From assembly GCF_963676685.1 (NCBI RefSeq), contig NC_092355.1, positions 73,470,001-73,534,000 on the forward strand: a DNA stretch of 64,000 nt, given 5' to 3'. Shown here in pieces: positions 16,408 to 54,040 of this stretch. A program made the position numbers and the translations under genes. Positions within the stretch are counted from its first letter, which is position 1, and every line of letters begins with the position of its first letter. Source of the stretch: Mytilus edulis (Eukaryota). Under the pieces are notes generated by a model. It did not search any database, was not told where the DNA came from, and saw only the letters and a program-made list of their open reading frames with translations.

Positions 16408-17573
16408 ATGACACAAAAACAAAAAGAAGCATATGTCAAACGAATATGGACAGATCCAGGTCATCCAGCTGCTTTTGCTGGCCCTAATAAATTATTAAAG
16501 GTTATTCGTCAAGAAGGAAAATTCGACATCAGCAGAGGACAATTGAAAAAATTTTAGCTGGTCAAGATACATACAGTGTTCAAAAACCTTCAAGAAAAAA
16601 CTTTAAAAGGAATAGGGTAGTTGTTGCTGGTTTAAATGCTCAATGGGACGGAGATTTAGCATCAATGGAAAATGTATCGGACTTTAATTCTAAAAAAGAA
16701 AATGTGTCTAAGTTTAATTCTAAAATAAAATTTTTATTAGTATTGATAGACATATTTTCAAGATTTTTGATAGTAAGACCATTAATAGACAAAAAAAGTG
16801 CGACAGTAACAGCTGCATTAAAATCAATTTTTACCGAAGGTAACAGAAGACCCAATACAATTCGTTTTGATTTAGGAGGAGAATTTCAATCAAGTGTGAA
16901 AAAATATTTACAAAAGGAAAAAATTCACGTTTTTTACACATATAATTCACGGATAAAAAGTAACTACGCAGAGAGGGTAATCAGAACTCTGAAGAATCGT
17001 ATATATTCCTATTTTATGGAAAATCAAACATCTAAGTACATAGATGTTCTTCAAAAATTGGTCGACAGTTACAACAACACACCACATCAATCACTGGGAG
17101 GTGCAACACCTGCATCTGTGACAAAAACGAACGAAGACGAAATTCGATACATGCAATATGTGGCCAGAAAAAAGTCAGTTTCTACAGGAGTTATGAAACA
17201 TAAAAAGAAGAGGAGACAATTTTACAAATACAGGGTCGGAAATCAAGTAAGAATTTCGCAATTGAAAAGAGTTTTCGAAAAGGGATATCAAGAAAATTGG
17301 ACTTTGGAATTTTTTAAAATATCTAAAAGATATAGAAGACAACAACAGGACATTTACAAATTAAAAGATACCCTAAATCAGGAATTAAAGGGGTCTTTCT
17401 ACAGGTATGAGATCCAAAAAATTGACCAATCAAAAACGAAACTGTATAAAATAGAAAAGATTGTTAGAAAAAGAAAGTTAGACGGTAAAGATCAAGTATT
17501 AGTAAAATGGTTAGGTTGGCCAATAAAATTTAATTCTTGGATTTTCAAAAATTCCATCAAAGATATTAAATAG
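16408..17573 (+). CDS. Retroviral-like (rve) DDE integrase with C-terminal chromodomain; one 1-nt frameshift at about 16552-16557 (388 aa if corrected)
   Basis: ATG 16408 reads ...WTDPGHPAAFAG...KKF then TAG at 16555. The -1 frame continues LAGQDTYSVQKP...WDGDL (D1), RFDLGGEF (D2), YAERVIRT (E), YNNTPHQS, and chromodomain YKIEKIVRKR...LVKWLGWPIKFNSWI. Confidence 0.92.
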
Positions 17574-17590
17574 TTCTTAAATGTTGTTTA

Positions 17591-18037
17591 ATGTCATTAA
17601 TTGGGAAAATGAGCGTGAGACTAGTTGTATCATCAGATGACGGAAAAGATTTATTCTTAGAAAATAAACCACACGACTTTAGAGTCAAATTAAATCAAAC
17701 AATACAGCTGGACGGTTACTGGGTTGTCGCTGTTACCGAATTTACTACAACAGAACGCAACGATTCAGACCAAAAGCCGGAATTGTTTATCTTTTCCGAC
17801 ATATGTCAAGATAGTTTTATTGGAAATAACGAACAACCGTTACTTAGAAGAATATATTTCGACAGAAAAAAACAAAACAATATAGTTTACCATAATCCTT
17901 ATTACATACCCGTTCGATTTAGCGAAATACAACATCTACATTTTTATATAAAGGATGATAAAGGACAAGATGCCTCATTTCTAAAACAGAAAGTGACGAT
18001 AACACTTCATTTGAAAAAATTCCCGTTCGTTTTCTAA
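17591..18037 (+). CDS. Maverick minor capsid (penton-like, single jelly-roll) protein
   Basis: FLENKPHDFRVKL...L.GYWVVAVTEF; FIFSDIC...IG...PLLRRI; YIPV...IKDDKG...ITLHLKK; located in the morphogenesis cluster. Confidence 0.8.
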   Translation: MSLIGKMSVRLVVSSDDGKDLFLENKPHDFRVKLNQTIQLDGYWVVAVTEFTTTERNDSDQKPELFIFSDICQDSFIGNNEQPLLRRIYFDRKKQNNIVYHNPYYIPVRFSEIQHLHFYIKDDKGQDASFLKQKVTITLHLKKFPFVF

Positions 18038-18491: not shown

Positions 18492-18494
18492 ATT

Positions 18495-19802
18495 ATGGCA
18501 TATTTGAGTGATGATAATAAAGAAATTGGGCAACCAATGGAACTTTCTATTTTTGCCTCTCCTCCTAATCAAGTGGCAATCGAGAAAATGATATATACGG
18601 AAGAACGGCCTATTTCAAATTTGATTAACGACTCTACACCTATTGAAATAGTAATCTCGGGAGCTGGTAATGACTACATTGATTTGAGAAAAAGTCGTTT
18701 ATACGTTAAAATGCAAATTTTAAAAGAAGATGGAACCAAACTTGCACCAAAAGAGAAGGCAGGGATAATTAATTTACCTTTACAGAGTATGTTTTCCAAC
18801 ATCGATGTTTACATGAATAATAAATTAATATCGGCAAATTCTAACAATTATCCGTGGAAGTCATACTTTAAAGTCATTCTATCTTCTGGCAGTGATGAAC
18901 AAAATTCTCAACTGCAAAGTCAACTCTTCATGAAGGACAGCGAACCTATGGACTCTTTAAATTTAAATGCCGGATTTGTAAACAGATACGAATATACAAA
19001 AGAATCTAGGACTTTTGAGCTAGAAAGCAATTTAATGGAAGACACTTTACTTTTGGATAAATATTTGATAAACGGCGTAGACATCTACATCAAACTTTAC
19101 CGTTCCAATGCTCCCTTTTTACTAATGTCTGCAGAGAAGACCCCCAAATACAAAGTAAAAATATTAGACGTATTCTTCAGAACAGCAAGAGTCAAGGTAG
19201 ACCCTGGTGTAATATTGAATCACAGACGTCAAATTAAAGAGTCACCTGCTAAATACCTCATGAACAGAAGCCATGTAATACAAAATGTCATACCTCAAGG
19301 ATCAACTGAATTTTTTTGGGATTCTTTGTTTCCAAAAGCACTGCCTTCTAAAGTCGTGTTTGGACTTGTATCTCAAAAAGCAGCAAATGGACACTATACA
19401 GCCAATCCTTTCAATTTCCAACACTATAACATGTCCAATATCACTTTGAAAGTGAATGGTGTAGAAGTATACGGGTCACCCCTAAACTTAGATTTCAGCA
19501 ATAATAGAAATTACACAGCAGCATATGTTAGGCTATTTGAAATTTGCGATAAATGGCAAAAAGACACCGGTTTAAACATAACTTTAAATGATTTCGGTAA
19601 CGGCTATACATTCATTGTTTTCAACATGGATCCTTCGGACCTACAGGAAGATTTTCTAAATCTCGTAAAACACGGGAACGCCAGGTTAGAAATGAGATTT
19701 AGCGTACCTACGCCAGAAGTTATAAATTGTCTCTGTTATTACCAAACGCAGGCCATTTTGACCTGTGACGAGACAAGAAACATCAACATTGTGGAACCAT
19801 GA
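18495..19802 (+). CDS. Maverick major capsid protein (double jelly-roll)
   Basis: 435 aa; YIDLRKSRLYVK, SMFSNIDVYMN, YPWKSY, LINGVDIYIKL, LPSKVVFGLV, NPFNFQHY, GYTFIVFNM are typical of Polinton MCPs. Confidence 0.9.
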   Translation: MAYLSDDNKEIGQPMELSIFASPPNQVAIEKMIYTEERPISNLINDSTPIEIVISGAGNDYIDLRKSRLYVKMQILKEDGTKLAPKEKAGIINLPLQSMFSNIDVYMNNKLISANSNNYPWKSYFKVILSSGSDEQNSQLQSQLFMKDSEPMDSLNLNAGFVNRYEYTKESRTFELESNLMEDTLLLDKYLINGVDIYIKLYRSNAPFLLMSAEKTPKYKVKILDVFFRTARVKVDPGVILNHRRQIKESPAKYLMNRSHVIQNVIPQGSTEFFWDSLFPKALPSKVVFGLVSQKAANGHYTANPFNFQHYNMSNITLKVNGVEVYGSPLNLDFSNNRNYTAAYVRLFEICDKWQKDTGLNITLNDFGNGYTFIVFNMDPSDLQEDFLNLVKHGNARLEMRFSVPTPEVINCLCYYQTQAILTCDETRNINIVEP

Positions 19803-20248
19803 ATGGAAAACAATTAACCAAATTATTAACCGACTACGAATGTTTAAAAAAGACATTTATCCATATCATCGATCTTAATAATCTTCACGATATCGTCCAG
19901 AATCATTATCCACAAGTTTATATAATCAATCCGGGAAAACATTGGATATGTGTAATTTTCTACAATTCCATAGAAGCGGAATATTTTGATAGTCTTGGAA
20001 AACAGGTTAATTTTTATGGTACTAGACTAGTTAATTTCATAGCCAACAACAGTCAAAGATGTACTTCAATCCAGAGACAAACACAAGCTAACACTTCAAA
20101 CATTTGTGGACTGTATGTTGTATTTTTTGTAACAATGAGATTATGTTTTAAAATGTCATTGGAAAATGTATATGATATGTTGTCTGTAAATAGGCATGAA
20201 AATGATCGATTTGTTAAGTTATATTTTTTAAAGGTATATTCTAAATAA
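19799..20248 (+). CDS. Adenain-like cysteine maturation protease
   Basis: PGKHW (His), EYFDSLG (Asp), QANTSNICGLY (Gln/Cys); ATGA overlap with the MCP stop. Confidence 0.9.
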   Translation: MNGKQLTKLLTDYECLKKTFIHIIDLNNLHDIVQNHYPQVYIINPGKHWICVIFYNSIEAEYFDSLGKQVNFYGTRLVNFIANNSQRCTSIQRQTQANTSNICGLYVVFFVTMRLCFKMSLENVYDMLSVNRHENDRFVKLYFLKVYSK

Positions 20249-20329
20249 AGTAAGATTAACAGATATTTTTTATTTACTTATTCTTCATGAACCTTATGAC
20301 GTAAGTCTTAATAAAAAACCCCCGCTATT

Positions 20330-21022
20330 ATGACAGTAGTTCATTTGTCACAAACAAACGCGATGGAGAATGATCGAACGATGTTACCCTTTTCTTCGCC
20401 GACAACAATTTGTGTAGTAGGACCAACTCAGGCAGGCAAATCGATGTTTACTAAAAGACTCATAGAAAATGCCAATGTCATGTTCGTTGAACCACCAGAA
20501 AAAATATTGTATGCTTATTCCGAATATCAACCACTGTTTGACGACATGCAAGAACAATCCAACTTGATATTTCACGAAGGTCTCCCGGATAAACAAAAAA
20601 TTGAAGAATTTACGGAAAATGGAAAACATTCATTGATTATTTTGGACGATCTAATATCTAAAATAGTACAATCGGAAGAGCTTTTGCATTTATTTTCTGT
20701 TACAAGTCACCATAGAAAGGCATCCGTAGTTCTCATTTCGCAATCTTTGTACCCTCCAGGAAAATACGCTAAAAGCATTTCTTTGAATTGTGCCAATTTC
20801 GTTTTGTTTCGTAACCCTAGAGATATGCGTCAGCTGATAACCTTTGCATCGCAGATTCTCCCAGGCATGACGCAATATTTCATGGACAGCTATTTAAAAG
20901 CGACAAAAGAGAGGTATTCGTATATGCTCGCTGACCTTTCACCCCACAGAGAAGATCGACAATACATGCTCAGAACAGGGATTTTTCCCGGTGACACGTG
21001 TGTAGTCTACAGACCTATATAA
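20330..21022 (+). CDS. A32/FtsK-like genome packaging ATPase
   Basis: Walker A GPTQAGKS; Walker B LIILDD; SHH..ASVVLISQ; ISLNCANFVLFRNPRD. Confidence 0.92.
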   Translation: MTVVHLSQTNAMENDRTMLPFSSPTTICVVGPTQAGKSMFTKRLIENANVMFVEPPEKILYAYSEYQPLFDDMQEQSNLIFHEGLPDKQKIEEFTENGKHSLIILDDLISKIVQSEELLHLFSVTSHHRKASVVLISQSLYPPGKYAKSISLNCANFVLFRNPRDMRQLITFASQILPGMTQYFMDSYLKATKERYSYMLADLSPHREDRQYMLRTGIFPGDTCVVYRPI

Positions 21023-21687: not shown

Positions 21688-24600
21688 TCACTTATTTACA
21701 CTACAATAGCCAAATGGTAAAGTTGTCAAGTCGTTTAATAACCGTCTCTTCGTGTATACCATTCTGTAATCTTTCTCTTCGACCCTGTTATACAATTTCC
21801 TTTTAAGGGCTAGTCTTGAAATTTTGCGTGGATTCCTCGTTTTGATATACTCGATATTTTTATTCACTACAACATCGCAAATAGAAGAAAAATTAATTAG
21901 ATCTGAATTGGTTTTATTGTTTAAGGAAAAGCCTCTAACTTTACAGGTTTCTCTTCCAGAGGCCATCTTATAGGCGTAATTCTTAGGACCTCCAGACACA
22001 AAATGTGTAATATGTCCATCTTCTGGTGAAACTTCGTTTGTCAATTGACCCAAGTAATTCCCTATGGGTAGTGTTTTTGTTAAGTTTTTATCTTTATCCC
22101 GAAAGATAATCGAGTCCGTATCCACGTACAAAGCGTCGGTACCAGTACGTTCCAGTAATTCGTACAGTTTGGTCCTTGCCCAACAAGTAGTAAATGAAGC
22201 TATGAAAATGTTAGTTTTGACGTCCATAGGAATAAAAAACGGATGATCCGTATGTTCCATTTGTACCAAATCTTTACTAATGATGTGAAAATCTATAACC
22301 TCTTTTCTAGGATCAGACAGTAACTGAAAAAAATTCTCTGCCTCGTTCTCGTGGAAAAATGTAGTTTGTTTCATATTTAGACGTTGACCAAATTTACCCC
22401 AAAAACTGTTTAAAGCAATTTTTGCCAAGCTACGAAGTCCTGGATTTTTTTTAATTTGATTATAGTCCAAATGTATTCCTTCATTTTTAGCGTAGTCTGC
22501 TATGTAATCCCGTTTCTGTTGTTCCGTTCTGCACTCTTCTGGAAACCCCGATGCTTCTTGTTTTAATTTCAAAAAGAGGTTGACATATGCATCGAAAAGT
22601 CCTCCTTTGCCCGTTCGAGGATTGTACGTTCGATGTTCTGGAAAGTGATATACTTCGTATATCTTTTGAATTGCATATCCTTTCGAACGTGCCAGATTCA
22701 GCTCTGGAGTACACCAAGTTCCGACAATAGCTCTTTCTTCATCTGTACAGGTACAGTCATTTTGGTTTTCGTTATCTGCACATTGTTTACAGAGTGGAAA
22801 CTTCAATTTTCCATTAGAAACGTACGGTAGAACAGGATGAAACAGATGCCTGTTAGGCAAGACTTTGACCTTCGCGACTCCGAAATAATTGGAAATATCT
22901 TCGAAATCCGATGTTATGATGACGGGATGACCAACTGGATATTTTCCATATTTGTTGACACTGGGATACAGACTACAAAATAAAAAAAAATGATATAACA
23001 AGGGATGAAATCATTTGAATAATTATATCATAATCCAGATTCTAAGAATTGAGATTACCTCGTAAAGTCGAAATACTCAATGGTCTCTCCTGGTTCTGTA
23101 CATTCGTGATAGAGCGTAATTGGATTGGTCCTACCGCCAAAAAAACTTTGTCTAACGTCTAAACGATCTTCGATCTCACACGTTGATACGTAGTCTCTCA
23201 TAGGGTCGTCTAAATCCAGCTGGTGGTGAAATTCGTGCTCCCAAATGCAGACATACTTGTACCCCAGACGTATCAGTTCTCTCTCTTTCTTTCTGGTTAG
23301 GTAGTACAATTCATTCATAGAATGTTTTGTCATTGGATGTGTTGTCTTTGTTCTATCGTGTGGGTAGCAGGAAGGACATCCATGGAAAACACAACCTTAA
23401 AATATATAATAATATATATATATATATATATATAATATATAATGTATATACATATATATATATGTGTGTATATATAATATATAAATTTTATAAACATATT
23501 AATATTGCCGCCGCCGCCGCCACCACCGTTTCGTCTCATACATTTACCACTCACCTAAGAATTCGTAAGCTGTCTTTTTTGGGAACTCCACGTAACCGTC
23601 TAGTCTGTAGTTCGTTCCAGGTACTTTGTATTCACCTCTACCGTTCAAGGCGTGTTGTATGTGGAGTCGTTTTCCCTTACGTCTGCTGGTTTCCATGATC
23701 CATTCCAACCACTGAATGGAAACTTTGCTAAAATTATCCCTTGCAACATAACCTTCTGACGGGACGACAGCAATCGGACTTTTGACAAATGTCGTTTTCT
23801 CTACTTTGTATGTATCCGAAGAATGTAAAGCTTTTTCGGTTACCCATTCACCACGGGGCAAACGTACAAGAAATTCACCACTTTCCTGTTTCGATGGACA
23901 CTTCAGAGTCTCGTTATTCGACAAATTTGTCAAAACAGTTTCATATTCTTCTTCCAGAAACAATTGTCTGTAGATCGCCTGACAGGCAGAGGCAATCGTG
24001 ACGTAATCGTATGGATCTATGCCTTCGGTAAGTTTTTCGTTGCTAACCGAAGTAACTTCCATCATGATTTTTCGAAACTGCATGCATCCACGTCTTAAAA
24101 TGTCTACGTCCGATACACAGTACTTGTACATCTCTGACTGAAAATCAAATGTTTTGCTCTTGTTGCTATTGTACCATTTCCAAAATGTGTTGGCTTCTTC
24201 TTCGCCCATGTATTCGATTCCGTAATAGTATGCCTCTGGTTGTGGCCCTTTATAAGACTGGTTTTCTTTCGTGTTGAACAGATGTGGAAAGTAACCTTTT
24301 TGTAATTCCTGTAAACCGAAACACTTGGGAATTTTCGACAATTTCATTCCTATGAAATTGATCGAATCCAGGAAGGTCAGGTCTAAATTCTTTGACACAT
24401 GCATATATACTATCTTCGAACCGTTAAAAATAATTTTATTGGGTTTTACGCTGTGGTGTTCTATCAGGGCATTCAATACGGGGTAGTTGTCAAAACCTTT
24501 CGCATTGTGTGCTATGAGTACCGTGTTTTTGTAATGCGGCGTCATAATCTGGGAACAAAATTCGTATGGAACGTCTTCGCCTTTAAACACCCTTTGTCTG

Positions 24601-26991
24601 TAACCGCAACTGCTTTCGCATGGAAGTGTCGTAGTATTCTTTTTGAAAATTCTACACTTATCACAGCGACTTCCACAAGTGTTACATTTTGAATCCGCGG
24701 TTAATTCTACATTTTCACAAATGACGCATGTGGACTGTAAAACCGCATAATTCACCTTGTGTTCCGCTAATCCGCACCATGACTGGTTACAGTTTTCACA
24801 AATTTTACACGTCTTACATCTTTCATCTGCTGAACATTTTTGTAGACAGGGTCGTCTAGGTACATGACCGTCCTTGCATTGATTATTATAACTGCATGTA
24901 ATCCGATGACAATGGGTACACTCTTTACATTTCCTACATCTATCTCTGTCCGTGCATGATTTCCCACACGGAACGTTAGGTGCATACCCTTCTTCGCACG
25001 ACATCTTTTCGTTTTGGGTTGTTTCGAAATCGTAAAAAAAGTATTTTCTCGGTTCTTTCTTCGTCGTATCTTTTAATGTCTTACGTTGATAACACCAATG
25101 TGTACCTATGTGATATTCGAAACAGTTTTTACATCGCCACTCACCGCATGTATGTTGTTCAGGTGAGCGTTTCTGTCGACACAGAATCTTACGACAGTTT
25201 TTACACTGGTAAAATCTTTCGCACATCGTTTTGCTATTTTCATTGTCCCTTTTAGACGTTTTGGTATTGTGTCTGTCATAACAGTCCTGGCTGCGACATG
25301 TTTGATTGCATTGAGAGCAAAGAACAGTATGATTACTAACGCGACACAAATTGCTACCACATACGGCACATGTGTCAACGCAAGAGTGTTTTCCTTTATT
25401 TTTGTAAGGTTTTAAGCAAGATTCGCAAAAATACCCATAGCCAAAAAAACCATTTATACTTCCTATACCTTGAAAATGGCCCGTTCCATCGGTATTTTCT
25501 ATCAGATACAAGTAAATATTTTTACGCTGTGCTTTGGTACTGACTCGACAAAACTTGTTGCCCAATCTGGCAGAAAGTACCAAAATATTAACGTCCAATA
25601 CATTTTCAAATTGTTCGATATCTCTTATACTTAAAGCTTCGTCTGTTGAAAGATTGGCTTCTTTGCATAATGTTATAGCCATTGTTTTACTGTAACTTGT
25701 ATTCTTTAGAGCAGATGCACTCACGTGTTTGAAATAACTTTTAGTCGTCATTCCGTGTTTTATGACTTTTTGAAAAGTGTTCATGTCTTCGTCGTTTTTT
25801 GTTGTTTCCCTCCATTTTTCTAATGGTACAATTTTACAGAGTTTTAAAAAACATCTACCAATAGCCGTTGCCAGACACATTTTATCTTCATTGCATACCT
25901 GTAAAATCGATTTTTTCAAAGCCAGGGAATTCGATGTCCCTTTCAGGCGAATTATTGGCAATCTCCCACTACCTCTAGGTACTGTTATATTTCCTATCGT
26001 GACATGCATTGACGTATCTAAAGGTAGGTTTTCCTCTGAATTCAGCACATTCTCGACAGCTTCCATTACTCTTTGTGAGTTTATGTTTGACCATTTATCT
26101 AAGGGTACAACGATGGAATTATTTAGTTCGGGATGAGAGATGATAACTCGTCCTAAATCGTTGTCATTGCCTTTGGCTTTGTTTAAAACATCATCAAACA
26201 TGTTTTCCAATTCCTTTTTAAGATTACGTAGTTTTTTACCCTTCCACGTATCATTAAATTTTACTTTATACGTGGTCTCTTTTGCCAGATTTTTAGAGAA
26301 TGTTTTTTTGTCCGGATCTTCGAAATAAATAGGGGTTTTCTTCGGGTTCTGCGCCGTAACCCTCTTCTTCCGAGTCATTCATGTTCAGTGTGATATGTTG
26401 GTCAGTACCAACAAGCACATTTTCTATGTCTGACCCATTAGTATTGGGGCAACTGGTGGAGTTAAAAGGTAATAAATTTGCGAGGATGGAGTCTCCCAAA
26501 TCATCCGATGGACAGTGTAGAGGTGTAACCAGTTCGCTTTCCAACGTCGGGGTATATTGGTTAGAAAAGCTTGTGGAGGGTACGTCTGATATATCGCTGG
26601 AATAGTCAACGGTAGTATTATTGGCTATATTTACAGTTGTGTTTTGACCTGTGGTCATGTCACCCAAAATTTCATGGATTTCCAAATGGTCTCTCAACTC
26701 CGTTGATAAATAAAATCTCTTTTTACACCATGTACACGTAAGTAAAATTACGAGCTTGTCTAATACTTGAGAGTTGTTTAAGAGACAGTTATCTGTGGCC
26801 CAACTTATCAAACTGTTGGCGTCAGTGAAACTGTTTAGAACATCTGTCCAATTGATTGACTGAAAATGATTTATTCTGTTTTGTACCAAGATATGATTCA
26901 TTAGACCATTGTCTGCGGCCCATTCTTGTAACTCATTTAAAGATGTGAAGTTGTTGATGATATTGTTCAAGGTTGGTGGTTTGTGTTTCAT
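21688..26991 (-). CDS. Protein-primed family B DNA polymerase; 3 exons (26991-23555, 23395-23059, 22972-21688); one +1 frameshift in an A7 run at 26303-26309; about 1685 aa if corrected
   Basis: ExoI FFYDFET; ExoII AHNAKGFD; ExoIII YCVSDVDIL; Vsr-like domain RLDGY...YEFLGCVFHGC...WEHE; motif A YFDFTSLYP (formed by splicing); motif B KIALNSFWGKFG; motif C YVDTDS; GPKNY. N-terminal C2H2 finger CTWC...HLEIH. Confidence 0.93.
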
Positions 26992-29112: not shown

Positions 29113-31767
29113 TCACATATAAGTCTCTTCTGTTAAGGGGGTCTTTATACGGTGACTTCTGGTTCGTCTGGCTATGGGGGGTGTTGGATCTTCCATTGGA
29201 GGTGCAGATGGTTCTGGCGATGATTCCCTATTGAAACTTTCAGTGTCTGATGAGGAGGAGTACGTACGGAGGGTAAAAATAGGTGTGATGTCTTCAATTG
29301 ATCTCAATCTAGGTACTGTTGGTCTTTGGGGGGTGGATATTTCTGGAACGGGAATGATGGTGGGTAATTCGAATGATGGAGTTATATCTAAAGTGGGTAT
29401 CTGAGTGGTTAGTGTCGAATCCTGTTGTGATCTGTTAATTGGTAAATAAGGCAGTTTCTGGTGTCTCATTCGGTAAAGCATCTTGCCTACGACCAGGGAA
29501 ACGTATGCAACAAATAGTCCCGACACTGTCCAAAATACTGCAAAATAAAAAACACATTTATATTCATTGTATAACCTTACCACAATAAATTGATATTTTT
29601 ACTTGCCATGACAGAATGTAATGTTATTTTTTTTTTTTTCCATTGTTTTTTTTTTTCATGTAGAATTAAACATATACTGTTTAGTTGATCAAATACCAAT
29701 TCTCCTCATTTTGTGCAAAAGTACAACTATAATGCCAAACCATCATTCACATTTATGTATTAAACCCTTAATTAACATTTGAAAAAATATTATTTTCTAT
29801 TAGGGTTAAACAAAACTACAGAACTTACATATCCAGTGTTATACATCTATAGCTAAAGAACTGCCATAACCTGTGATAATTTACCAGATCATTTGTATTG
29901 CCATGATCTTGACTTGATACAGACATTTTAATTGAAATGGTTATTCAAACAATAAAAGATTGTTATGTACCTGTCATAAATACATCCATTTTCTGTAAAT
30001 AATGTCCCAGGTCTTTCTTCTGTTCTAAAAAAAAAAGAAAGTAAAACACATTTAAATAACTTAAAAAAGTCATATCTCAAATTATTTTCATTAGTCATGA
30101 ACAACACTAAAAGTCTTACTAAATGTATGTGCATCCTATAACCTACATTGTTAACAATATAAAACAGAAACTTGTACTGTTAAAATGCTTTATTTTTGAA
30201 AGATCTTATAATTTTATATTTTAGATAAACAATCATTTTCTATTTTTACATATCACCTTTTTTGTATCATTACCTGAATGTGGTTCTTTGTTGTCTGTGG
30301 TCACCCTAACTGTTGTGGTAGGCCATGCTTCTTTGAGATCACTGGTTGTTGAATCCCTAGTGGTGGGCCATGCTTCTGTGTGGTCTGTTGTTGTTGTTAC
30401 ATTTCTAGGCTTGGGGGGTGTTTTTTCCTTCCTTGTCACTTCTAATATGTTGTCAGGTACTGAAAAAAACAAACATTTTTAACACAAATATATCTTTATA
30501 AAAATATACAAAAGGTTGTCTTACCAATTGTCTGTTAGAAAAAAAATTATTTTTTTTACAATAGAATTAAGTCAAAAATAAGTTCTGTCCAGTAAAACAC
30601 CTTTAAAATCATTGTATGGGGGGCCATTTTTGGATTTTAATTCATTTAAAGTATTATAAAAGATTTGACACTTTGGGAATATATATATAAATTTTATAAA
30701 CTTTTTAATATATAATTTATGTATATAATATATAAGGTGGTTAATTTTCTCATTTGATTTGTTTTACATTGTCATTTCAGGGTCTTTTATAGCTGACTAT
30801 GTTGTATGAGCTTTGCTCATGGTTGAAGGTTGTATGGTGACCTGTAATTGTTAGTTTCTGTGTCATTTTGGTCATTTATGGAAAGTTGTCTCCTTGACAA
30901 TCATACCACATCTTCTGTGTTACATTACAAAAGTTATTATCCCTTGAGTAAGGAGACAGTCTTGCAGGTAATTCATTATTTGATCAAGTGACTTACTACT
31001 GGCCAGTGCAATAAATTTGTTATTACATAGTACTGTCAAAGCAGATATTTTCATGTGAACTTTATATTTTGTTATTTTCTTTGGTGGCACATATTGGACA
31101 TAATCGTATAATGCATTGTCTGTCTTTAAACTTGTGGTTCAAAAATAAATAATATATTCTCCCATGAGACTTTTGAAAATAAACACAGTTTTCATTATTT
31201 TGTTAACCACAACATAATGTCCATTTTCCCACCAAAAGTACAGCTGCTAAATTTATGAAATACATGTTATAATCAATCAAGGGGTTTTTGAGGTGTAAAT
31301 AAGCTACAATAGGTTTGATTAAGATCTGTATTTAACTTATGCTGTGCTTAAACCATCAGGAATGGTCTTAGGTGGATTTTCTTTAAAACTTTGAAATTGA
31401 ACATTTACATATCTTTTGGTAGGTTGATGTGTAATATTTTCTTGGACAAAGTTTAATCACAGACAGTATTATTTTTTTTTACTTCATATAAGAAACTGTG
31501 TTAATGTAAAAACCTACCACATGTCTCATTTGTGCATGTCCAGCTACACTCTCTGTCAAACATGTTTGTTACAGTAGGGGGCTCATTGAAGTCTACCAGA
31601 TGTATAATACAGTCACAACTTTCTGACATCACTTCTACAATCCTCACTTCCCTGACATAAACTTCCTTATTGCAAAAGCAAACGGCCGAAGCTGTGTCAT
31701 ACTGACATTGACCATTTATAGTTGTAATAAAGATGAATAGAACTGATACAATTTGAAACCACGCCAT
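29113..31767 (-). CDS. Four-exon type I membrane glycoprotein, 304 aa (exons 31767-31518, 30459-30274, 30024-29971, 29537-29113)
   Basis: All three introns are GT-AG and phase 1, joining into one open frame: signal peptide MAWFQIVSVLFIFITTING, Cys-rich ectodomain, Thr/Pro-rich stalk with an EAWPTT repeat, TM VFMTVFWTVSGLFVAYVSLVVG then KMLYRMRHQK, and a Pro/Ser-rich tail with PSAPP. Confidence 0.75.
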
Positions 31768-33097
31768 TTTTGTTTTGAAGAGAACGGAAAAGAGGTCGGG
31801 GGTGAATGTAGACTGGGATCCCGCTATATATAATCACCTTGTTCTATAAATAGACAGGTGGAGACCAGCGCCATTTTAGTACTTTTTAGTACTATTTAAT
31901 GCGCAACCAGTCGCGCAGGAGATTCCGGATGTTTCATGGGAATTTCCTAACTAGAATACAGCTGTCAGAATGGAAGAACGTCTGCTACAATGAAGATCGA
32001 CAATGTAACCCATAAGCTCATTTAAATGGTATCGTCAACAAATAATTGAATATATATAACATGTAAAAATATTTATTATAGATATCAGTACTATAAAAAA
32101 AAAGTTCTACCCCAAAAAATGAGGATTTAGATATATTTTATTTTTATTTTTGGGCAGTTGCTATTTTTACAAAAGTGCCAAGATATATATAACAAAAAAT
32201 AAACAGTCACAAAAAACATTTTCAAATCAATTTATAAAAGATGACATACATGTAGACTCCTTTGTAGAAAGCAGTATATTAATATCATATACATGTATAA
32301 ATTATACATATATGTAAGTTGTTTTCATCTCTAACAAACTAAACAAGTGATTATTGGACATTTTTTTCTCATCTTAAACATATAAAATACTGTCTTCTTT
32401 AAGATTTCATCATTTTCCCAGCTAGCTACTTTTTCAATTTCATAACTTTTTCTTCATTAAGGTAAACAAAATTTTGACCTGTGTTTCCCAGTATTTTGAT
32501 TAAAGAAATGATGAAACTTTCTCCATACAAATAAAGCAAAAATTTATTTGTACACCTGTTATTTGTACAATAAAAGGCTAATTACAGGATAAAATGTCAT
32601 ATTTTGATTGGCTAATACGTTCATTTACTCTAATGCAGCAGATTTTTAATTATTCTTAACCATCAATCATGAATGAATATTTAATAGACTGCAGTCTTAA
32701 TCAATTTTTAAACAATGGAAAATAAATACTTGTTATTAATATAATTACATTAGATATATGTTTCATTATAATACATTATTCTGATTGACAAACTACACAT
32801 CACATGTTATTCTTTAAGCAATTGCATTACACAGTTAAACTTCTTTTTGTAACTTCATATGGTTGTAAAAGTGTTGACAGTGCACACTTTTTAGAATGAA
32901 GCACTTTCGCACTTCATACAAAATGAACTTTGTTCAATGCTTTTACACCCAATGAATTTTCACAAAGAATCATTCAATTCTTGAATAGTTGTATAAGGAA
33001 CTTATTTCATTTTAAATGCTTAATTGTAATAAAATCAATGATATTTTTTTTTACAGATGGAAAGCTGACATCAAGCAGCAAATTGAACAACTATACG

Positions 33098-33240
33098 GAC
33101 AAGATGGAACACTATTAAGTTAATAAGTACTAGAAAGACAAGATGGAACATTATTAAGTTAATAAATACTAGAGAGACAAGATGGGACATTATTAAGTTA
33201 ATACAGACAAGATGGATAACTATTAATTTAATAAGTACTA
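33098..33240 (+). repeat. Minisatellite, about 4 copies of a unit up to ~39 bp
   Basis: gacaagatggaacactattaagttaataagtactaga with variants. Confidence 0.85.
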
Positions 33241-33695
33241 CATATATTAAAATAAGTAAAAATAGTAGTGGTAACAAATTTAGTCATTGAAGGTGATTTC
33301 TGGATATTATAGTCTTCAAAAAAAGAAGATATGGTATGATTGAAAATGAAAAAAATATCACCCAAAGACATTGGAACCATCGTAATCATCAGCAAATTAT
33401 ACTGGAAAATAAATACACACTTCGTGTACCATTATATACCTAAAGCTCTTAAGCTTTGCTGGTTCCAATTTAGAATTATTCAGAGAATTTTAGGACATAA
33501 TTCACTACTTAACCATGTTTACAAGATGAAAAAAAAATGGTTATGAGTATCATATGGTTTTTGGCACAGTGGAAGAAAAACAATTTACCAAACAAAGTCA
33601 CATAAAGTATTACCAAAAAAAAGGGAACACAAACTTACAGAAATACATTTCATTTAAAAACCTCTCTGTAATGAAATATGATAAATCTCAAAGAC

Positions 33696-35035
33696 TTAGT
33701 GGTGTCTTCTTAATCTATCATGTCTATCTTGGACTGGTTTATTTGTTTTCTTTGTCTGAACCCTCAACTCTCATTAGAAATAGGATAACTAAAACTCTAT
33801 TCATCTAGTAGGTCATTAAAGCAAAGAAAAAGGATTACGTTCATAGTATAAGGGAGATAATTCCTATTGATGTAATAAAAAAAATGTACTGAATTTTATT
33901 GGGACAATATCAGCCAATCAAATTGTGAAAAATTACTCCAGCGATCAGCCAATTTTTTTTTTTTTTTTTTTATTTATAGATGAGAAAAGACTTATGCACA
34001 AACATGAACAACAAGACAAGAATGAATTATATATGCAGAATTTGAAATTAAACAAAAAGCAAGGTAAGTTCTAGGTAAGTTCAATTTGTGACACAGTTTG
34101 AACATCAACAATAAAAAAGGGACATAATTATGTATCATATTAATCCAGTTTTTTTTTTATTGATATTAAATAAAAAAATCGTGGTTTTTTAAAAATCATA
34201 TTCCTGAATTTAAAGGTGGAGATTATTTACCATTATCGTTAAGTATGCTAACAACAATGCTATTAAGAGATGTGGTATGATTTCCAGTGTTACAACTACC
34301 TATCAAAGTTCAAATTTAGCTGATTTAAGCAATTGCATGCAACCGTACAGCATTCAACTATGAGAAAAATCCATACCTTATTGTCAGCCCTAAAAGACTC
34401 CAACCTGATAAATATAATACATTTCAATTAAAAAAACTAAAGGAACTGTTTCTTTCAGAAAATTGATCTTTGTTCAATGGAATAATAAAGACAGTTTGTG
34501 TATATGGTCATTGGTTAAAAATAAAAGCTTTATTGGCAAGGGTTACAAATTTTGAAAAAAGGGAATTTTAAGCTATTAAAGGTATAGGATAAATGCAGAA
34601 TATACTTTTATTGTAAAAATTTATTTGTATGAGCTTGAGGTGCATATTTTAAATTAAATAATACAGAGGAAATAAGCAACATATAAACACCATTTAAAAA
34701 AAATAGTGGGGTCTTCTTAATCTATCATGTCTTTCTCACACTAAATTATTTTTATTCCTTGTCTGCACCCTCAACTGTCATTAGAAATAGGTTACCAAAA
34801 ACTTTTTTAAAGCCAACATTTATATGTGTACCTGTTAATACCAAAAATTGGTTGATTGCAGGATAAAATCTTGTATAAAATATTTTTATTTATAGATGTG
34901 AAGAGACTTATGCACCAACCTGAACAAGACAAAAATGAATTATACTAGTATATATGTGCAGAATTTGAAATTAAACAAAAAGCACGGTAAGTTCAATTTG
35001 TGACACAGTTTGAACATCAATAATAAAAAAGGGAC
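33696..35035 (+). repeat. Diverged direct duplication (33696-34125 vs 34705-35035), each copy holding an exon-like unit
   Basis: Shared gtcttcttaatctatcatgtct...tcattagaaatagg and ttatag|atg.gaa.agacttatgcac...aaaaagca.g|gtaagt...gggaca. Confidence 0.75.
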
Positions 35036-35690
35036 AGAATGGCGGGTCCCTCCTTAGTTACCCCTGGTCAACTGTGGATTTGACGGCAACTTTTAGCCAA
35101 TGAAAAAAATTGTTACATCCAAATTGCATTAGAATATTGGTTCTTTGTCAAATCTAATAAGTAAAGACATTAAAATTGAAAATGGAAATGGAGAACATAT
35201 TAAAGAGACAACAATCCTACCAATGAGCAAACAACTGCTTACAGCCACTAATGGGTCTTCAATATAGTGAGAATCTCCTGCACCTGGAGGCGCTCATACT
35301 AGTTCAGGGATAATTAATGTCATACTAAACTCCGAAATATATACACAAGAAACTAAAATTTAAAATCTAATAAGACTAACAAAGTCCAAAGGATACTTGG
35401 ATACACGTACTTGGGACATATGCAACAATGAGACAACAATACAATATGCACAATAAAACTCATCATAACAAAAAAAGTACATGTATGTGGTCATTGCTTA
35501 AGATTAAAAGCTCCATTGGCTGTGTATGGATACTTATACATTCCAATTACACACCTATGACTACTTTGTAAAATGCATAACTGTTTTAATTTCATGCAAT
35601 ACAGGCTTTTTAGAGTTTAAAAGAAAACTGTGTTAAATGATGCATACTTTTAATCTTTCCTTTATATAGTTGATTTCTAATACCAAGAGG

Positions 35691-38600
35691 ATGAATGTAG
35701 GTCTAGGTACACCTATCAAGCAGAGAGAATGTGATAGAGATTTTTGTTTAGTGTGTGGGAAATTTGCAAAGGAAGCCCGTAGAGTAGAAACCATCCGGAA
35801 GTTAAAAGGGAAAGATTACAGTTTAAAGGAGTTATTGAAGAAATATGGTGGAATTAATGTTGAAAGTGGAACAGTATGTAGAAACTGCAGTAAAAAAGTT
35901 GACTCTCTTCACAAAAAGAAAACTGATTTTTACAATGAATGCCAAAAAAATGCTGGGATGTCAAAACGAATGGCTTCCTCACCACATATAAATCCACCAA
36001 AGAGAATAAATATGTCAACACCGAAAACATCTACTCAATATGCAGCAGTTTTCAGTGACAGTGAAGAAGAAGAAGATGACATTTCCATCATTGGTTTACA
36101 TTTATCAGATGAAGGTAATTAAGTTAAGATATATGTTAACTTAAACCTGGCAACAATGAGTTGGGTGGTGCCCAATGAAACCCTTGCAAAAATGCAGATA
36201 ATACAGATTCTTTACTATAAAGTTTCTGGGGGACCAGGAACCATTGTAAATACATATAAATGTAATTTTGTATACTTATTAATCAATAACTTTAAAAATT
36301 TAATAATTAAGACATATAAGCTAACAAACATTATAAAAGAATTAAAATACAATTTATGGTAGCCACACTATTGTGCTGGTTTTAACTTTTGTCCTTGTAC
36401 TTTGAGCATATCCAAGGGATCATAATTTCAGAAAAACCACGGTGGCTGAAATTATTTTCACCCTTTGATGTGTGGTTTCATGTGAATAAATGTAAGTTAA
36501 GTTTTTTTTTCACACTTTTAAATTTTATTTTTAATTGGAGTTATTTCCCATTGCTCAGAATGGTACTAGAATTAATTTTTTTTGTTGATAGGTGGCCTAG
36601 ATTGATGCTTATGTTATGATCTATTTTAATTTATGAGTTATCTAAGTTTGAACAGGAATGGTGTAATTAATAAGTATATGGTTAAATACATGTAGTATAT
36701 CAATGAATGTATCTCTTCAAATGGTTTTAGTCAGAAGTTGTAAAAATATCATTATGACTATTTTTAAGTTATTTGTCTTTTTAATGTAGAAGTCCCAGTT
36801 GATCCTGTTTGAGTTTCAAGATTTCCAAATATCATTTTCATGCAGGAATTATGGTTTGCTGTCACTCTGACAGACTCTTGTTCTGAATCTTATATGGGAA
36901 CAATGCAATTAAAGAGGCATATCATCAGAAAAACTCATGCGTACAAAAATTAACCAAAGCAGACAACATTCAAACTTTCTAAAAAAAAGAAATTGAAAAC
37001 AAACCTTTAATAATTTCAATGTATCTGAAGCTCTTTTCTGGATTTACCTTCATCAGAAACTCTCATAGTCAAAGCCAAAGAAGGGAAGAAAGATACCAAA
37101 GATACCAAAAAGGACAGTCACACTCATTTATTGATAGATAAACTGACAACACCATGTCCAAAAAAGAAATAGACATAATTTTTTATATAGAATAGACCAC
37201 TGGTGTACCGTTTCAATGGTTTTACACTTGTAATTTTGGGGACCATCATAGCTTGTTGTTCGGTGTGAGCCAAGGCTCCATGTTCAAGGCCGTACCTTGA
37301 CCTATTATTGTTTACTTTATAAATTGTTATTTGGATGGAGAATTGTCACATTGGCCCTAATATCGCATCTTCCTATACTTAAATAACAGTTTACAGAACA
37401 CAAAATAAAAAAACTAAAGACTAAGCAACACAAACTCAACCAAAAACAGTTGGTGGTATGAGGTGCTCCAGAAGGGTAAGCAGATACTGCTCCACATGTG
37501 GCAGCAGTTGTCTTGTTCAAGTTATTACAAATCGTGCAAATAGTCTAACTGGGTAAAGTCACATGCAGGAAAAGAGAAGGGGTGGTAGTAACTACATAAG
37601 GAGCATATATATCTGATTCCATCTGTCAAACTGCTCATCGATAACGATCAACCACCTCGTGACGGCCTCCCTCTAAATGAATTAACAAATTTCTTGGAAC
37701 ATAAGGTCGATATCAGATGTTGTTTAAGGGGGAGCACACTTGAATTAACTTATCTAAGAATATCAGTTAAAATCTGTTTGACAGTCAAAATGTAGGAGAC
37801 AGTAAAAATGTGTTACACAGTAAAAATCTTATTTTCAAATTTGGTTCGATGAATCAATCTTTTTTATTCTGAAAATAGATTTTATTATTTGGAACAAATT
37901 TGTATACTTTTCTTTATTTTTTCATAACATTTTTATTATAGATACAGAAACAAACCAAGCACATGTATCAGGTATCCTATCTTTACAGTCTGCATCATCT
38001 TTATCAGGATCATCTTCACATCCATTTTCATTAGATTCATTGACTTCTTCTGCTACATCTGAATCGGCAACATCCTTTCAAACAGCTTCTATGACATCTT
38101 TGGCTTCATCTAATTCTGTAACATCAAACCAAACAGGTTCATGCTCAACATCTACTGATCACATATATTCCAAGAATAATGAGAAATCTTCAACCGTAAA
38201 ATCTAAGGGTAAAGAAGATAAGCAAAGATCAACAATTCCTGCTGCCATAGATCACGATTATATTGTATCTAAGCCTTCCCCTGTTGTACAAAATATAATG
38301 GTAGATAAAATCATGGATTTTAAAAACAATATAAATATAAATTCAAAAACAGAAATGAAAGAAGCAGACACAGAAATTCTTATGTCTATCTTGAAAACAA
38401 AAAACAAAAGAGAAGTTATCAAACATCTCCTCACAACTGAGGGTTTTAAAGACAGCATCCTGTGCCTTTTGATGGAGGAAACAAATTTGATGTCCAATCG
38501 TCTAAGAAATAGGAAACTATTTTATGTTAGTGAGTTGATGAAAAAGAGACCAGAGGATTTGAAATTTTTTAAATGGAATGAAATTATTTGTGAGTTCATG

Positions 38601-41600
38601 GTAAAATTTCCAACAGTTTTCAGTTTGATATTGACAATGTTCTTAACGCCACAAGACATGGAGAACAAAGATAAAATAGAAGCTATTATACCAAGAATAG
38701 GAATGGTTTACAGCATGCTAATGCAGGGAAGAAACAAAGAGCTCAGCAGAATACAGCGAATAACATCACTGTTTTTGTTTGACAACATATGTGATCAAAA
38801 GGTAAATAAATGTTTTATACTATTCATGTACAGAGAATTCATCCTTGATTCCTTTATAATGCAATGGTGATCAATCTGGTATTGTTTTTTCTAGGTGTTA
38901 TACTGGAAATAGAAAAACAAGCAAGAAGGTGGAATATATATCTATGTGTTCAAATAAATTAAAAATTCATGATGATAGCTAATAAGAAAACTCTCCCTAA
39001 GAGACTAAAAGCCACAGAAATTAACAACTTTAGGTCAGGATACAGCCTTTAACAATGAGCAATTAATAACAATGTATAATGTCGACTCCAATTTTTTATA
39101 AATACTAAAAAAAGAAAAGAAAATTATTAATGAAATGAAAAATCTAGCAATACAATACATCAAATACTTAAAGGGTACTTTGAACAACTGTGTGCAGTGC
39201 AGTATGGTACCATGTGAGGTATAACTGGAGCCAGTAGACTTGTGGTATAATAATACTGTTCAGAAAAAAACTAAACTTTTTTTCCTGAAAAGAAGATGGT
39301 TTTATTTAGGATAAATGTTACACTTCTGGTTTTAATGTGTTTTCTTTTCAAGTTTAGACAATTCAGAATACCTGTGAATACAATTAAACTTCAATACACT
39401 GAATACTAATTTGTTTACTCACTTAATTTGATTTTAAAAGAATTATTACTTTTAAAATATACTTCATATTAAGGAAGATTCATTTAACTTGCAGGTGTTT
39501 GATAGACTTCAGACGGTTGGCGTATGCCTAAGTTATGAAAGAAGCCTACAAATTGTAGAGATGATTGGAGGCCATTTCAATGATAAGGTAGTGCAGCTGG
39601 TAAAGGACAACACTCGTTTCCGAATCATTGGTGACAACATCAATTGGACTGTTGGTGTTCATGACCAACGAATTAACAACAAACAGAAAATGATGCATGC
39701 TTTTGGTTCAGCAGTGATAGTACAAAACCTGACCTTCACCAATCTAGACAGAGTTGTACCACAACAGCTTTATAGTCAAACACCAGTTCAAAACTTCATA
39801 CCATCAGAGGAAGATTACAACCTTATAACAACTGACTACATCATTCTAATGTCAAGGGTTGTTTTTGAACACATTCCATACTTCAAAAAATTTTCAGATA
39901 TTGTTCCAATTAACATCAGCACACCATGTAGTCCTAATTTGAAAAAAAAGTCAGAAGTCATACCATTACCTGTTCTGTTAAAAAATGAGCAATACTATCA
40001 AGATGTCGTAGGGATACTTGATTTCTATGAGAAATGTTTAAAAGATGCGCATGATAAAGCAGGAAAACAACTCCATGATCAGACATATCAGATAGGAGGA
40101 GACCAGCTGACACGAGAGAGATTCTCAGGAGCAAAGTCACTCAGGGCACACCATCTTAATCCTAGTGACAAATTCACCCACTTGAGTCCAATAACTTTTG
40201 AACTTTTCCACATGTTGATGTCCTACCTCAAAATGTCATTGAACCTCACATACAAACAAGAAAGTGGTCAGGATATTGGAACCTTAAAATCACTCCAAGA
40301 TAGACTTTCCAGAAAAAATATTGGTGACAATGTGAATGATCACTATGAAGCAAATAAAGACTTTTTTATTTCTGTTACAGACATGTACATTGTGGAGTGT
40401 TTCTTGGAGTTTTTTGGTATGGAAGATAAATATTCAATGCCAACTAAACATGTGCCACCAACCTTTAACACAAATGATGAAATGAAGGAATGGTATTTCA
40501 GTACTGTGGAGATGATAGTCAAACAACATGTTTTCCTCCAAACTATAACCACAGGTGCAAAACAACAAATGCTGGAAGGTATATATATTTATATATATAT
40601 ATGTGTGTGTGAGCATGAAACATTAAATGAACTGAGTTCACTAACCATCATTATAAAATACCAGGATAAAAGCAACTATTTGTCCAAATACATTTGCTGT
40701 GTACATTACAATTCACCTTGGTCAAATTAAACATATACTGAATCCTTGATCAGACACACTGACATAAAAAGCAGGTTTAGACAGGCAGCAAGGGTTATAT
40801 AAATTGGGCGTAAGATTTTAATTTCTACTATAGATGTTTCAATTAACACTGATCAAACTATAAACTAACTTTCAGCATGAATAAGTAAGAAAACAGATTT
40901 GTTTTTTTGATTAATTAATTATGACAGAATTCTAAACTTCAAAATCTGTTCTGATTGTGATTATATACTGCTACATTTAAATTTGAGGATGAATATACCT
41001 GTATAAATCAAATTGATGGAAATAACTCCCCATACAGAAATTAATGCTAACAAAAGCACATAAGTTTCACATGTGAAGCACATGAGATGCAAGTAAGAAT
41101 TGTATGCAAATCAGGTTGCTCATATGTGCAGTTTGGTAGTTCATATATATCTAATTTAGAAAACTAATTCTTTACAGTTGATGGTCAAGTTTTCCGATTA
41201 GTTTTGGCGAATGGGAAAACCATCACACTCATGAAGAAAACAATATCAAAGTCAAAGAAAGGTGATCAGATTAGTAATTATGGAAATCAAATACTCCAAC
41301 TAGGATTGTTATTTAAAGACTTGATAGATATGATACATATGCCAGAAAGAGTAAGAGGGATACGTTTGTTGAAACTTGCAATGATGTATTTTAAAGTCTA
41401 TAATAATCTATCTAAGTATGCCTTAGAAATACTCAGACTCCTGGTACATCAGTTATGTACTTTGTCTGAGAAAGGCTCCAATGAGGAGTTCTACGCCATG
41501 TTTGTGAATACAGGAGGAAAATTTGAAACACATATTCCTGCTGATCGAAGAATGGAGTACCTTGTCAAAGAAGTGAAACAACATGTTAAGCATATGTACT

Positions 41601-41914
41601 CCAACAAAACAGAAGAGAATATTTCAAACCGTACCAGGGCAATATCTGGAATTCGTGAAATTTCAGTAAATTTTGACCAACAGTCAGGGGTAATTATACG
41701 CTCAAAAAAACATTCCGACAAATCATCTAAGGAAGATGAACTGGCTATTTTATCAGATTTACGAGATATTAGACCATTTCATTGTCAACCTGGTAGGAAA
41801 CATTCATGTTTTGGAGAAATGTCATCATCTGTTGTTCAAAACCTTGATGTGGACCATTATCACAATTGGATCAATACCAGAAAAGTTAAATTTGCTTTGG
41901 AAAATGGGAACTAA
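35691..41914 (+). CDS. Academ-type DDE transposase, 4 exons (35691-36114, 37942-38801, 39495-40578, 41178-41914), about 1034 aa, intact
   Basis: GT-AG introns of phase 1, 0 and 1 keep the frame; N-terminal CLVC...CRNC zinc site; Ser/Thr linker; IIGDNIN (D), GGDQLTRER (D), FELFH, PADRRMEYL (E). Confidence 0.85.
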
Positions 41915-42599
41915 ACATTGACATAATCAAATGACTATTAATAGTCTGTAATTTGCCAGGTGCAATTTGTTTTTTTGTAACTTGTTTTCTTTGGATTGAT
42001 CTGAAGATTGAAGATATTTCATCAGATTTTTGTAGATTGTTGTTATGATGTATTTGATAATTACATGATTTTCCCTGGTTGGGTGAAGGGTTTGACACCT
42101 TCAAACTAGTTAAACCCAACCATAGTCTGTTGTTGTTGGTTGATCTAATATTTGTATTTTTTTAAATTTTTTTATATGAAATAGAGCACTTAGTTTTCTA
42201 AAAAAAAAATCTCACTTTTTTCAAGTGGGACCTTTTATAGCTGACTATAGGTTTATCTCATTGTTAAAGGCTATACTTATTTGATTGCCTATGATTGATT
42301 ACATTTAATTCTTTTGAACTTTGGTCATGAGAGTTGTCTCATTGGCAATCTTACCACATCTCCATATTTTTATGACAGTTCTTCTTAATTAAAACTACTA
42401 TATAGCTTTTATCCAATCAATCATTTTTTCTTCAAATATATTCCACCTTTGGTTTGTATTGATATTTGATATGTAAAGGTCATAAAGTTTTTTTTTAAAC
42501 CTGGTTAATGGTAAACATAAAATCAAAAGAACTAACATACAATATGCATATAGCTTTTTATATACTACAAATATTTTCAACTTTTTAACTAGTTACATG

Positions 42600-44290
42600 A
42601 AACATTTTTTACCTATTATAAAGAAAATGCACGATCACTTACACTGTTTTCTTTAGTTTAAAAATCTACAGTTACCATATACAATGTAGAGAATATTGGA
42701 CATTTTCTTTGCTGTTTCATATGATAGACCAGCAATAATTACTCTAGTTTGGAAATAAAATATTCACCTTTTTTTTAGATATTAGCAAAGGCAAAAATGA
42801 TTATTCAAAATAATTTTTTTTGTCAAAATAATTCACAAATTAAAATAGTGGAAAGATACAGATATTTACAGTATTTTACCGGTAGTTATTGTATTTATTT
42901 TTTATTGAAATTAAAAAAATGCCACAGATGATCTCTTTAATAAAGCTCTACAAGTCTTTTTCTCCATTAAAAGTATATAATTGTAATTTCTGTGAGGTAC
43001 CCTTGAAAACCTGTCTTAAGGTGGTACCCAACACTTTCACTAAAATTAATTTGGTTCGTTTAATTTTCATAAAATTTCGTCAAAGTATTTACTTTGAGAC
43101 TTTGATAAATATATAAAAAATTTAATTTTTTTGAACCAACCATTTTGTCAGAAAAAATACACTGGTTATATAGCAATTTGACAAACTCCAATTTTGATCA
43201 TTGAGAAGCTAAATATTCCTTTTACAACACAACGTAATTAAAACGTTTAGCTGATTTTACAGAGTTATCTCCCTGTAGTGTTAGGTACCACCTTAAACTT
43301 TTTGAAAGTCTGATTAAACCTTTTTTCACATATGGTAGTGAAATGTGGTTATTTGATCATTACATAAATTTGAATAATTTTGACAATCTACCAACTGATA
43401 GAATACAACAAAAGATGTGGGAATATATTCTGAGGGTCAAAACATAGTCATCAAATATGTCTAGTAGACTTGAATGTAACAGGAATCCAATGTTGTTTAT
43501 TAATTTTGTTTAATGTATAGTTATCATAAAACAATACTTAAAATAAATATAGCTAGAATATTATATAGTGCATTTAATGCAGGTCAATAATTATCTCATG
43601 AAAACTTAAAATGCTGGTTTTCTACACTGAATAAAATGTTAAAGTACTTAAACTTAATACAAAAAAATTGACAATAAAAACTCTTATAAGATAATATAAT
43701 CAGCAATCTGTCTTACAACCACAAATAATCATATCTGGAGCTGTGGACAGAAACCTGGTGTTTTTTAGTAATATTTTTGTTTCAAATTTTGTTCCCAGTA
43801 CTATCTTCAAACCAATCTTTTCAAAAATATGAAAAGTAAAATTACACACTTACATGTATGTGCTCAGTTTTTAAATTTTAAAATGGGAAGATACAATAAA
43901 CCCAAAATTCCAAGATAACTACGTTTTTCACTCAGTACAGACTGAAGAAGATTTATTAAAATCTTGTGATGAATATAAAGTGTTTAAAGGTACCAGATTA
44001 TATTATAAAATATAAGGCACATTGTTTACCAATCTTATGGCTTAAATTTAAAAGATTCATGAAATAATCATTTTCTAAACTTTTAAATCCACAAAATATT
44101 ACTGAATGTACATGTAATCATTTATTCAAATTTGTCAGAGATGCATTAGACATAGGAAACAATTCATAAAAGGAGGGTTACAATTGTATAACATGTGAAA
44201 CATTGAAATTTTGTTTTGTATGATATCATACATGTATGACATTTAATGGAGAATACTTATGTTATATTACTTATCTAATCTGAATCTGAA
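42600..44290 (+). pseudogene. Heavily degraded LINE 3' remnant between the two AcademH genes
   Basis: Residual YGSEMW, ILRVK and GRYNKPKIP motifs; (atctga)n tail at about 44272-44290; boundaries approximate. Confidence 0.5.
43020..43292. mobile_element. TTAA-specific MITE (Kolobok- or piggyBac-like)
   Basis: ttaa|ggtggtacccaacact ... agtgttaggtaccacc|ttaa. Confidence 0.8.

Positions 44291-54039: not shown

Positions 54040-54040
<1 letters not shown>

Follow-up and report, generated by a model that had tools for sequence, protein, structure and literature searches.

The window, a 64,000-nucleotide stretch of the Mytilus edulis genome (assembly GCF_963676685.1, contig NC_092355.1, positions 73,470,001 to 73,534,000 of the forward strand), contains a Maverick element with 91-nt terminal inverted repeats (TIRs) and a 6-bp target-site duplication (TSD), AATGAA. 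The left TIR (14696..14786, plus strand) begins with ACTACT directly after one AATGAA, and the right TIR (54182..54272, minus strand) ends with AGTAGT directly before the other. Near the left TIR lies a CARD + PC4 ORF (15094..16188), followed on the same plus strand by an integrase with chromodomain (16491..17573; Pfam rve and Chromo), a probable minor capsid protein (17570..18037), a probable major capsid protein (18492..19802), an adenain-type protease (19769..20248; Peptidase_C5, below the curated cut-off) and an A32-type packaging ATPase (20315..21022; Pox_A32). Protein-primed DNA polymerase B (pPolB; 21688..26378; Pfam DNA_pol_B_2) is encoded on the minus strand in three exons. Neither capsid gene has a Pfam match; the minor capsid protein was assigned from position and from conservation across families, the major one from size, position and conservation, the latter traced over 101 genome matches. 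The major capsid protein has an omega of 0.04 against the sister family. With pPolB, integrase, ATPase, adenain protease, capsids, TIRs and a 6-bp TSD, the element is a Maverick/Polinton, and the capsid-encoding element of the preliminary description is confirmed.

The core gene set, the TIRs, the 6-bp TSD and the accessory regions flanking the core are like those of vertebrate Mavericks, and the native size of about 20.8 kb falls within the vertebrate range of 12.7-24.6 kb (PMC8097293, in excerpt). The termini, 5'-ACTACT...AGTAGT-3' (14696, 54272), are the reverse of the common vertebrate motif; the excerpt gives three end motifs, none of which is 5'-(ACT)2 (PMC8097293). Two GT-AG introns interrupt the pPolB gene, one of phase 1 at 23554-23396 and one of phase 2 from 23058 to about 22973; they occupy the same positions in sister family B and nearly the same in family C (41-55% identical). 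In contrast, the excerpted sources describe intact vertebrate elements as free of introns (PMC8097293) and nematode core genes as intronless (10.1101/2022.07.12.499685). The gene studied here lies beyond PolB, in the accessory arm between PolB and the right TIR, unlike the nematode cargo, which adjoins the integrase (10.1101/2022.07.12.499685, in excerpt). The same arm holds a second PC4 ORF (53492-54010) near the right TIR, which has a hydrophobic segment and recurs in other families.

Gene model, transcripts and the nested transposon

Four minus-strand exons joined through three GT-AG introns, all of phase 1, encode a predicted membrane protein of 304 aa. Exon 1 (31767-31518, 250 nt) holds a signal peptide (about aa 1-19) and an eight-cysteine domain (aa 21-83); exon 2 (30459-30274, 186 nt) a Thr/Ser-rich stalk with 31% S+T across aa 84-145; exon 3 (30024-29971, 54 nt) the membrane-proximal linker and the start of the transmembrane segment (TM); and exon 4 (29537-29113, 425 nt) the remaining TM and a 120-aa tail with YLPI, SPEPSAPPME and PIARRTRS. 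The PSAP codons lie at 29200-29211 on the minus strand (aa 273-276). The joined frame and an agreeing RefSeq model thus bear out the four-exon gene proposed earlier, and its layout of signal peptide, Cys-rich domain, Thr-rich stalk, TM and PSAP tail was found by hydropathy and sequence as described. It should be mentioned that the RefSeq model (P0003, XP_071143936.1, Mytilus edulis), identical in sequence to the 304-aa protein, may be the same locus and then reflects agreement of gene finders but no independent occurrence.

The signal peptide and the single TM (about aa 161-183, with a modest peak of 1.85) are hydropathy calls, as is the cytosolic placement of the tail, which has only two lysines. 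The eight cysteines, S48 and W76 of the Cys domain are unchanged across ten aligned relatives. No match for the ectodomain was obtained in Pfam above cut-off or in the ESM Atlas, none for the membrane protein among PDB sequences, and none in the viral and metagenome contigs searched. The AlphaFold2 model of the Cys domain has a pLDDT of 45.5 and is unusable as a fold. No convincing alternative terminal exon was found 3' of exon 4 in the window copy.

Transcript evidence bears out one junction of the model. One RNA contig, from one of the four runs, crosses intron 3 between exons 3 and 4, and no joint is listed for introns 1 and 2; other contigs read unspliced across introns 1 and 3. In raw RNA from two runs, one run gives low cover over exons and introns with no listed joints, and the second almost no cover outside a repeat. 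In run X21 the cover over window 28700-32100 is low, with the first mate mostly on the minus strand and exons and introns alike; depending on the library chemistry, the reads may represent antisense RNA or precursor that has not been spliced. A common host repeat in intron 1 (about 30723-30932), present in the examined family-A copies, dominates the RNA depth there. Among runs catalogued as RNA, none contained the stretch, a result with no bearing on expression.

Directly upstream of the gene, an 18.8-kb DNA transposon that is not part of the native Maverick occupies 31809..50579. Its ends, TAGACTGG and CCAGTCTA, match over 8 nt and are flanked by a 10-bp TSD, GGGGTGAATG; it holds DUF6589 and DEAD-helicase exons, and its end has many genomic copies. 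AcademH elements encode a RecQ-like helicase and a transposase between short TIRs, with a TSD of 9-10 bp, and we provisionally call the nested element AcademH-like on these features. The empty site is preserved in five sister copies, which join window 31812 straight to 50580, so the DNA that natively lies upstream of the membrane gene continues at 50580..54181 (minus strand), together with the second PC4 ORF. About 40 nt separate the ATG from the transposon, which cuts the coding region off from this native upstream DNA. In an intact copy a TATA-like word stands 168 nt upstream; the insertion displaces this native word, and another is available in the transposon end, at 65 nt. Since the coding region is split from its upstream DNA, expression may come mostly from sister copies.

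Copies, relatives and the conserved tail

Three of the five near-identical sister copies are open in all four exons with the same splice sites, so the reading frame is conserved, as the preliminary description required; one of the others has a stop in exon 4 and the other has no exons 3-4. Older copies provide three last exons, one of them open, the other two carrying frameshifts. Sister family B encodes a protein 39-40% identical to that of family A, the family of the window gene, in five exons with four introns, again all of phase 1. Comparison with older copies gives omega values of 0.12-0.32, and that with family B gives 0.21 in the last exon (where dS is near saturation); both indicate purifying selection, the outcome of the dN/dS comparison suggested earlier. 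Between families A and B the core genes are 58-89% identical and the capsid protein 89%, as against 39-40% for the membrane protein. Low omega together with faster divergence than the core genes marks the membrane gene as a maintained but fast-evolving accessory gene.

All copies with several exons lie in Maverick sequence, the complete ones always between PolB and the right TIR, and 15 of the 16 loci of the membrane gene are on one contig (C11, 6% of the assembly), a clustering whose test ignores segmental duplication; local hopping or a transposon-trap region is a possible cause. In four decayed intermediate elements no membrane exons were seen in the stretches examined. An M. trossulus gene model fuses family-B exons to a zinc-finger/PolB ORF. 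The contigs of the M. trossulus records are equal in size, as are those of both M. californianus records. The database protein P0001 has a different TM-tail piece, which was not found in the genome of the window.

The tail is conserved most strongly around PSAP. Families A and B share SSPEPSAPPME without a change, although synonymous differences occur in 6 of the 11 codons; a run of this kind arose in 267 of 200,000 permutations, a figure that overstates significance, as columns were taken as independent and the alignment favours runs. Two M. coruscus proteins (CAC5421908.1 and CAC5381132.1), found with a profile of the ectodomain only, both keep SPEPSAPPME, YLPL and P[IV]AxRTR. Across the resulting four last exons, which are 32-50% identical, SPEPSAPPME is the longest invariant run (10 residues; 11 of 200,000 permutations under the same simple null of independent columns, which likewise overstates significance). 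The PSAP motif pointed out in the preliminary description is therefore conserved in divergent relatives. YLP[IL] near the membrane and the basic P[IV]AxRTR near the end are kept in all four divergent tails as well. The chance of any P[ST]AP in a tail of such composition is 1-3%. Conservation reaches past the core motif (RD.SPEPSAPPME), S-P pairs recur, and another ligand or a phospho-site may lie behind this wider conservation.

The motif resembles a known ligand of TSG101. PEPTAPPEE of HIV p6 binds TSG101 (PMC7650771, in excerpt), and PEPSAPPME matches it at 7 of 9 positions, in a cytosolic proline-rich context like that of HIV-1 p6. A TSG101-binding late domain has a conserved P(T/S)AP in a cytosolic segment, and the mussel tail, placed in the cytosol by hydropathy, has one too; it differs in having no companion PPxY or YPxL. 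The canonical host TSG101 gene keeps the UEV pocket residues (residue list from the excerpt of PMC7650771). Three UEV loci lie at C10:50.00, 50.83 and 50.88 Mb, one being the canonical TSG101, and a UEV-RING paralogue (P0024/P0026) has changed pocket residues. For pocket residues outside 63-119 the numbering is our assumption. Given this conservation, the PSAP tail likely recruits the host vesicle-budding machinery.

The motif is present in 14 of 22 database records; four stop before the TM, and four (P0008, P0009, P0010 and P0015) have a TM but stop before PSAP. Two of the last four are the only M. californianus records seen. These four TM-bearing records may stem from dead copies with frameshifts, or they may represent a genuine short form.

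Membrane genes of other Maverick loci

A heuristic scan of 20 other capsid-bearing Maverick loci found spliced membrane genes of like layout (signal peptide, Cys domain, stalk and TM) in six (L080:7850-9409, L088:4336-6230, L141/L142, L149/L150, L167 and L147:7900-9487), one of them seen only as TM-tail exons, and none in 14. Four of the six share one ectodomain, which has no detectable relation to that of the window gene; homology of the window Cys domain with this E/G/H/I ectodomain was rejected by hhalign (probability 0.15%). The ectodomain introns of these other families are of phase 0, whereas a phase-1 intron interrupts the TM, as it does in the window gene, so the all-phase-1 pattern emphasized in the preliminary description holds for families A and B but does not extend to comparable genes.

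In families E, G, H, I and J, two to four candidate alternative TM-tail exons are predicted from sequence behind one ectodomain, the last of them ending in LRRSxR. This arrangement points to display of the ectodomain with variable sorting. P[ST]AP occurs in one of 12 TM-tail exons of other families, as PTAP in family G (0.004 expected by shuffling); a sorting signal specific to one lineage accounts for this better than a budding role shared by all would. The last exon of family G has an in-frame stop. The family-E ectodomain exon (C1:72464086 and others) is present in 22 copies of 99-100% identity, and 20 of 21 family-E capsid loci (with identical scores) have it within 31 kb. Atlas matches for this ectodomain all score under 0.9 (ECPIP, LRR) and serve as leads only.

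Possible roles of the membrane protein

The sequence shows a spliced gene inside a Maverick, kept under purifying selection and encoding three conserved tail motifs. We tentatively favour, with somewhat less than even confidence, an adenovirus E3-like accessory glycoprotein of predicted type I topology, acting on the host and sorted via ESCRT-I. The signal peptide would direct insertion into the ER, and an O-glycosylated stalk would hold the disulfide-rich domain off the membrane, where it could bind some host surface or soluble protein. The YLP[IL] motif (YxxPhi) would then mediate endocytosis and PEPSAPPME would bind the UEV domain of TSG101, after which the protein and its bound partner would bud into multivesicular bodies, to be degraded or released on extracellular vesicles.

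Adenovirus is described as a non-enveloped relative of Polintons, and its E3 proteins (E3/49K, CR1 family) are likewise accessory type I glycoproteins; E3/49K is glycosylated, has a YxxPhi sorting motif in its tail and is encoded in a fast-evolving region (PMC13437282, in excerpt). E3/49K differs in its Ig-like CR1 domains and in a tail of 19 residues, which carries LL and YxxPhi, against 120 aa with PSAP in the mussel protein, and neither sequence similarity to E3/49K nor CR1 Ig-like homology emerged from the Pfam and PDB sequence matches. The short-form records without PSAP, the thin RNA support and the lack of an ectodomain match in Pfam and PDB count against the E3-like reading, as do the conservation past the core motif and a tail with two lysines and neither PPxY nor YPxL. 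The combination of one ectodomain with a set of candidate TM-tail exons, present at six or more further mussel loci, suggests that invertebrate Mavericks have an E3-like region. Membrane-active accessory genes named in adintoviruses are PLA2X, GasderminX and a cupiennin-like gene (PMC8502044, in excerpt).

It is possible, though not probable, that the protein is instead an adaptor for egress or quasi-envelopment, in which PSAP would bind TSG101, the basic AxRTR end would bind capsids, and particles would exit in host vesicles without lysis. Bluetongue virus NS3 and hepatitis E virus ORF3 are models for such non-lytic vesicle exit; like p6, they have a topology other than type I with a mucin stalk. 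The topology and stalk of the mussel protein also differ from those of host LITAF/SIMPLE, another P(T/S)AP protein. The full morphogenesis module under strong purifying selection, the late-domain context near that of HIV, the PTAP in a TM-tail exon of family G, whose ectodomain is unrelated, and the recurrence of R-rich basic ends in non-homologous tails argue for an egress adaptor. Nematode Mavericks, moreover, gained a gB-like fusogen, and enveloped particles have been proposed for them (10.1101/2022.07.12.499685, in excerpt). However, 11 of the 12 comparable TM-tail exons have no P[ST]AP, no such gene was seen at 14 of 20 loci, no fusogen-sized ORF was found in the window Maverick, and the concentration of loci on one contig suggests local copying more than reinfection. 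For these reasons we rank egress below the E3-like role.

The nematode fusogen MFUS-1 has, like the mussel protein, a signal peptide and a single TM, and the nematode cargo genes wasp and krma are, like the mussel gene, spliced and carried inside a Maverick, but MFUS-1 is an 866-aa gB-like fusogen (10.1101/2022.07.12.499685, in excerpt). The mussel protein has 304 aa, with a folded domain of about 64 aa in an ectodomain of about 145 aa, dimensions that do not suit a class III fusogen. The proposal that a recurring, alternatively spliced module of mussel Mavericks here combines a true TSG101 late domain with a capsid-binding end, leading to ESCRT-dependent quasi-envelopment of the Polinton particle, appears rather unlikely to us. 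If it is true, ESCRT-dependent budding would occur in the group from which adenoviruses arose.

The E3-like and egress readings would share one step, the recruitment of TSG101. Animal Maverick particles have not been observed according to the excerpt of PMC8097293. A small protein with a conserved TSG101-type motif offers a direct way to study how animal Mavericks exit from cells and handle host defence. Intron-bearing Maverick cargo genes and a Maverick membrane fusogen are already known; neither a Maverick protein with a conserved TSG101-type motif nor a recurring spliced membrane module was found in the open-access literature, where supplements may list such ORFs.

An improbable alternative assigns the basic ends, P[IV]AxRTR in the window gene and LRRSxR..P.RL in five other families, to the nucleus: as nuclear localization signals or anchors to the nucleosome acidic patch they would tether an inner-nuclear-membrane protein, or a released fragment, to chromatin, with ESCRT acting at the nuclear envelope. 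The retention of P[IV]AxRTR in all four divergent tails and the LRRSxR ends in families E, G, H, I and J, which presumably resemble the CENP-C motif, would suit such a tether. The mucin-like stalk and YxxPhi, in contrast, point to passage through the Golgi and to surface or endosomal cycling.

The capture of a host-type surface protein, as put forward in the preliminary description, is not supported, and very doubtful is a recent capture of a host cell-surface gene as a passenger that would do everyday host work, as nematode wasp and krma do. Nematode Mavericks do carry intron-bearing host cargo (10.1101/2022.07.12.499685, in excerpt), and the introns of families A and B are all of phase 1. 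Introns are no mark of host origin here, as the element's own pPolB has two. Within the mussel's own genome, exon 1, exon 4, the family-B exon and two distant homologues, used as queries, led to nothing but Maverick-linked copies and single-exon fragments; homologues as intact host genes outside Mavericks were not found. Six loci with such fragments show no core gene in the part that was inspected, which would suit a host gene; a seventh fragment adjoins a truncated copy. Of 11 matches to a profile run against 1.84 billion representatives, all five named ones are Mytilus uncharacterised proteins; moreover, the membrane gene diverged together with the element. An old host origin is compatible with the analysis, and nothing in it shows one.

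The least likely reading, that the conserved block is another linear motif (a proline-directed phospho-site or an SH3/WW/EVH1 ligand) in a signalling-type tail and no TSG101 ligand, accords with the conserved residues on both sides of PSAP (RD.SPE..PME), the recurring S-P pairs and the 1-3% expectation for P[ST]AP, but the invariant run is centred on PSAP, with flanks as in the HIV p6 ligand.
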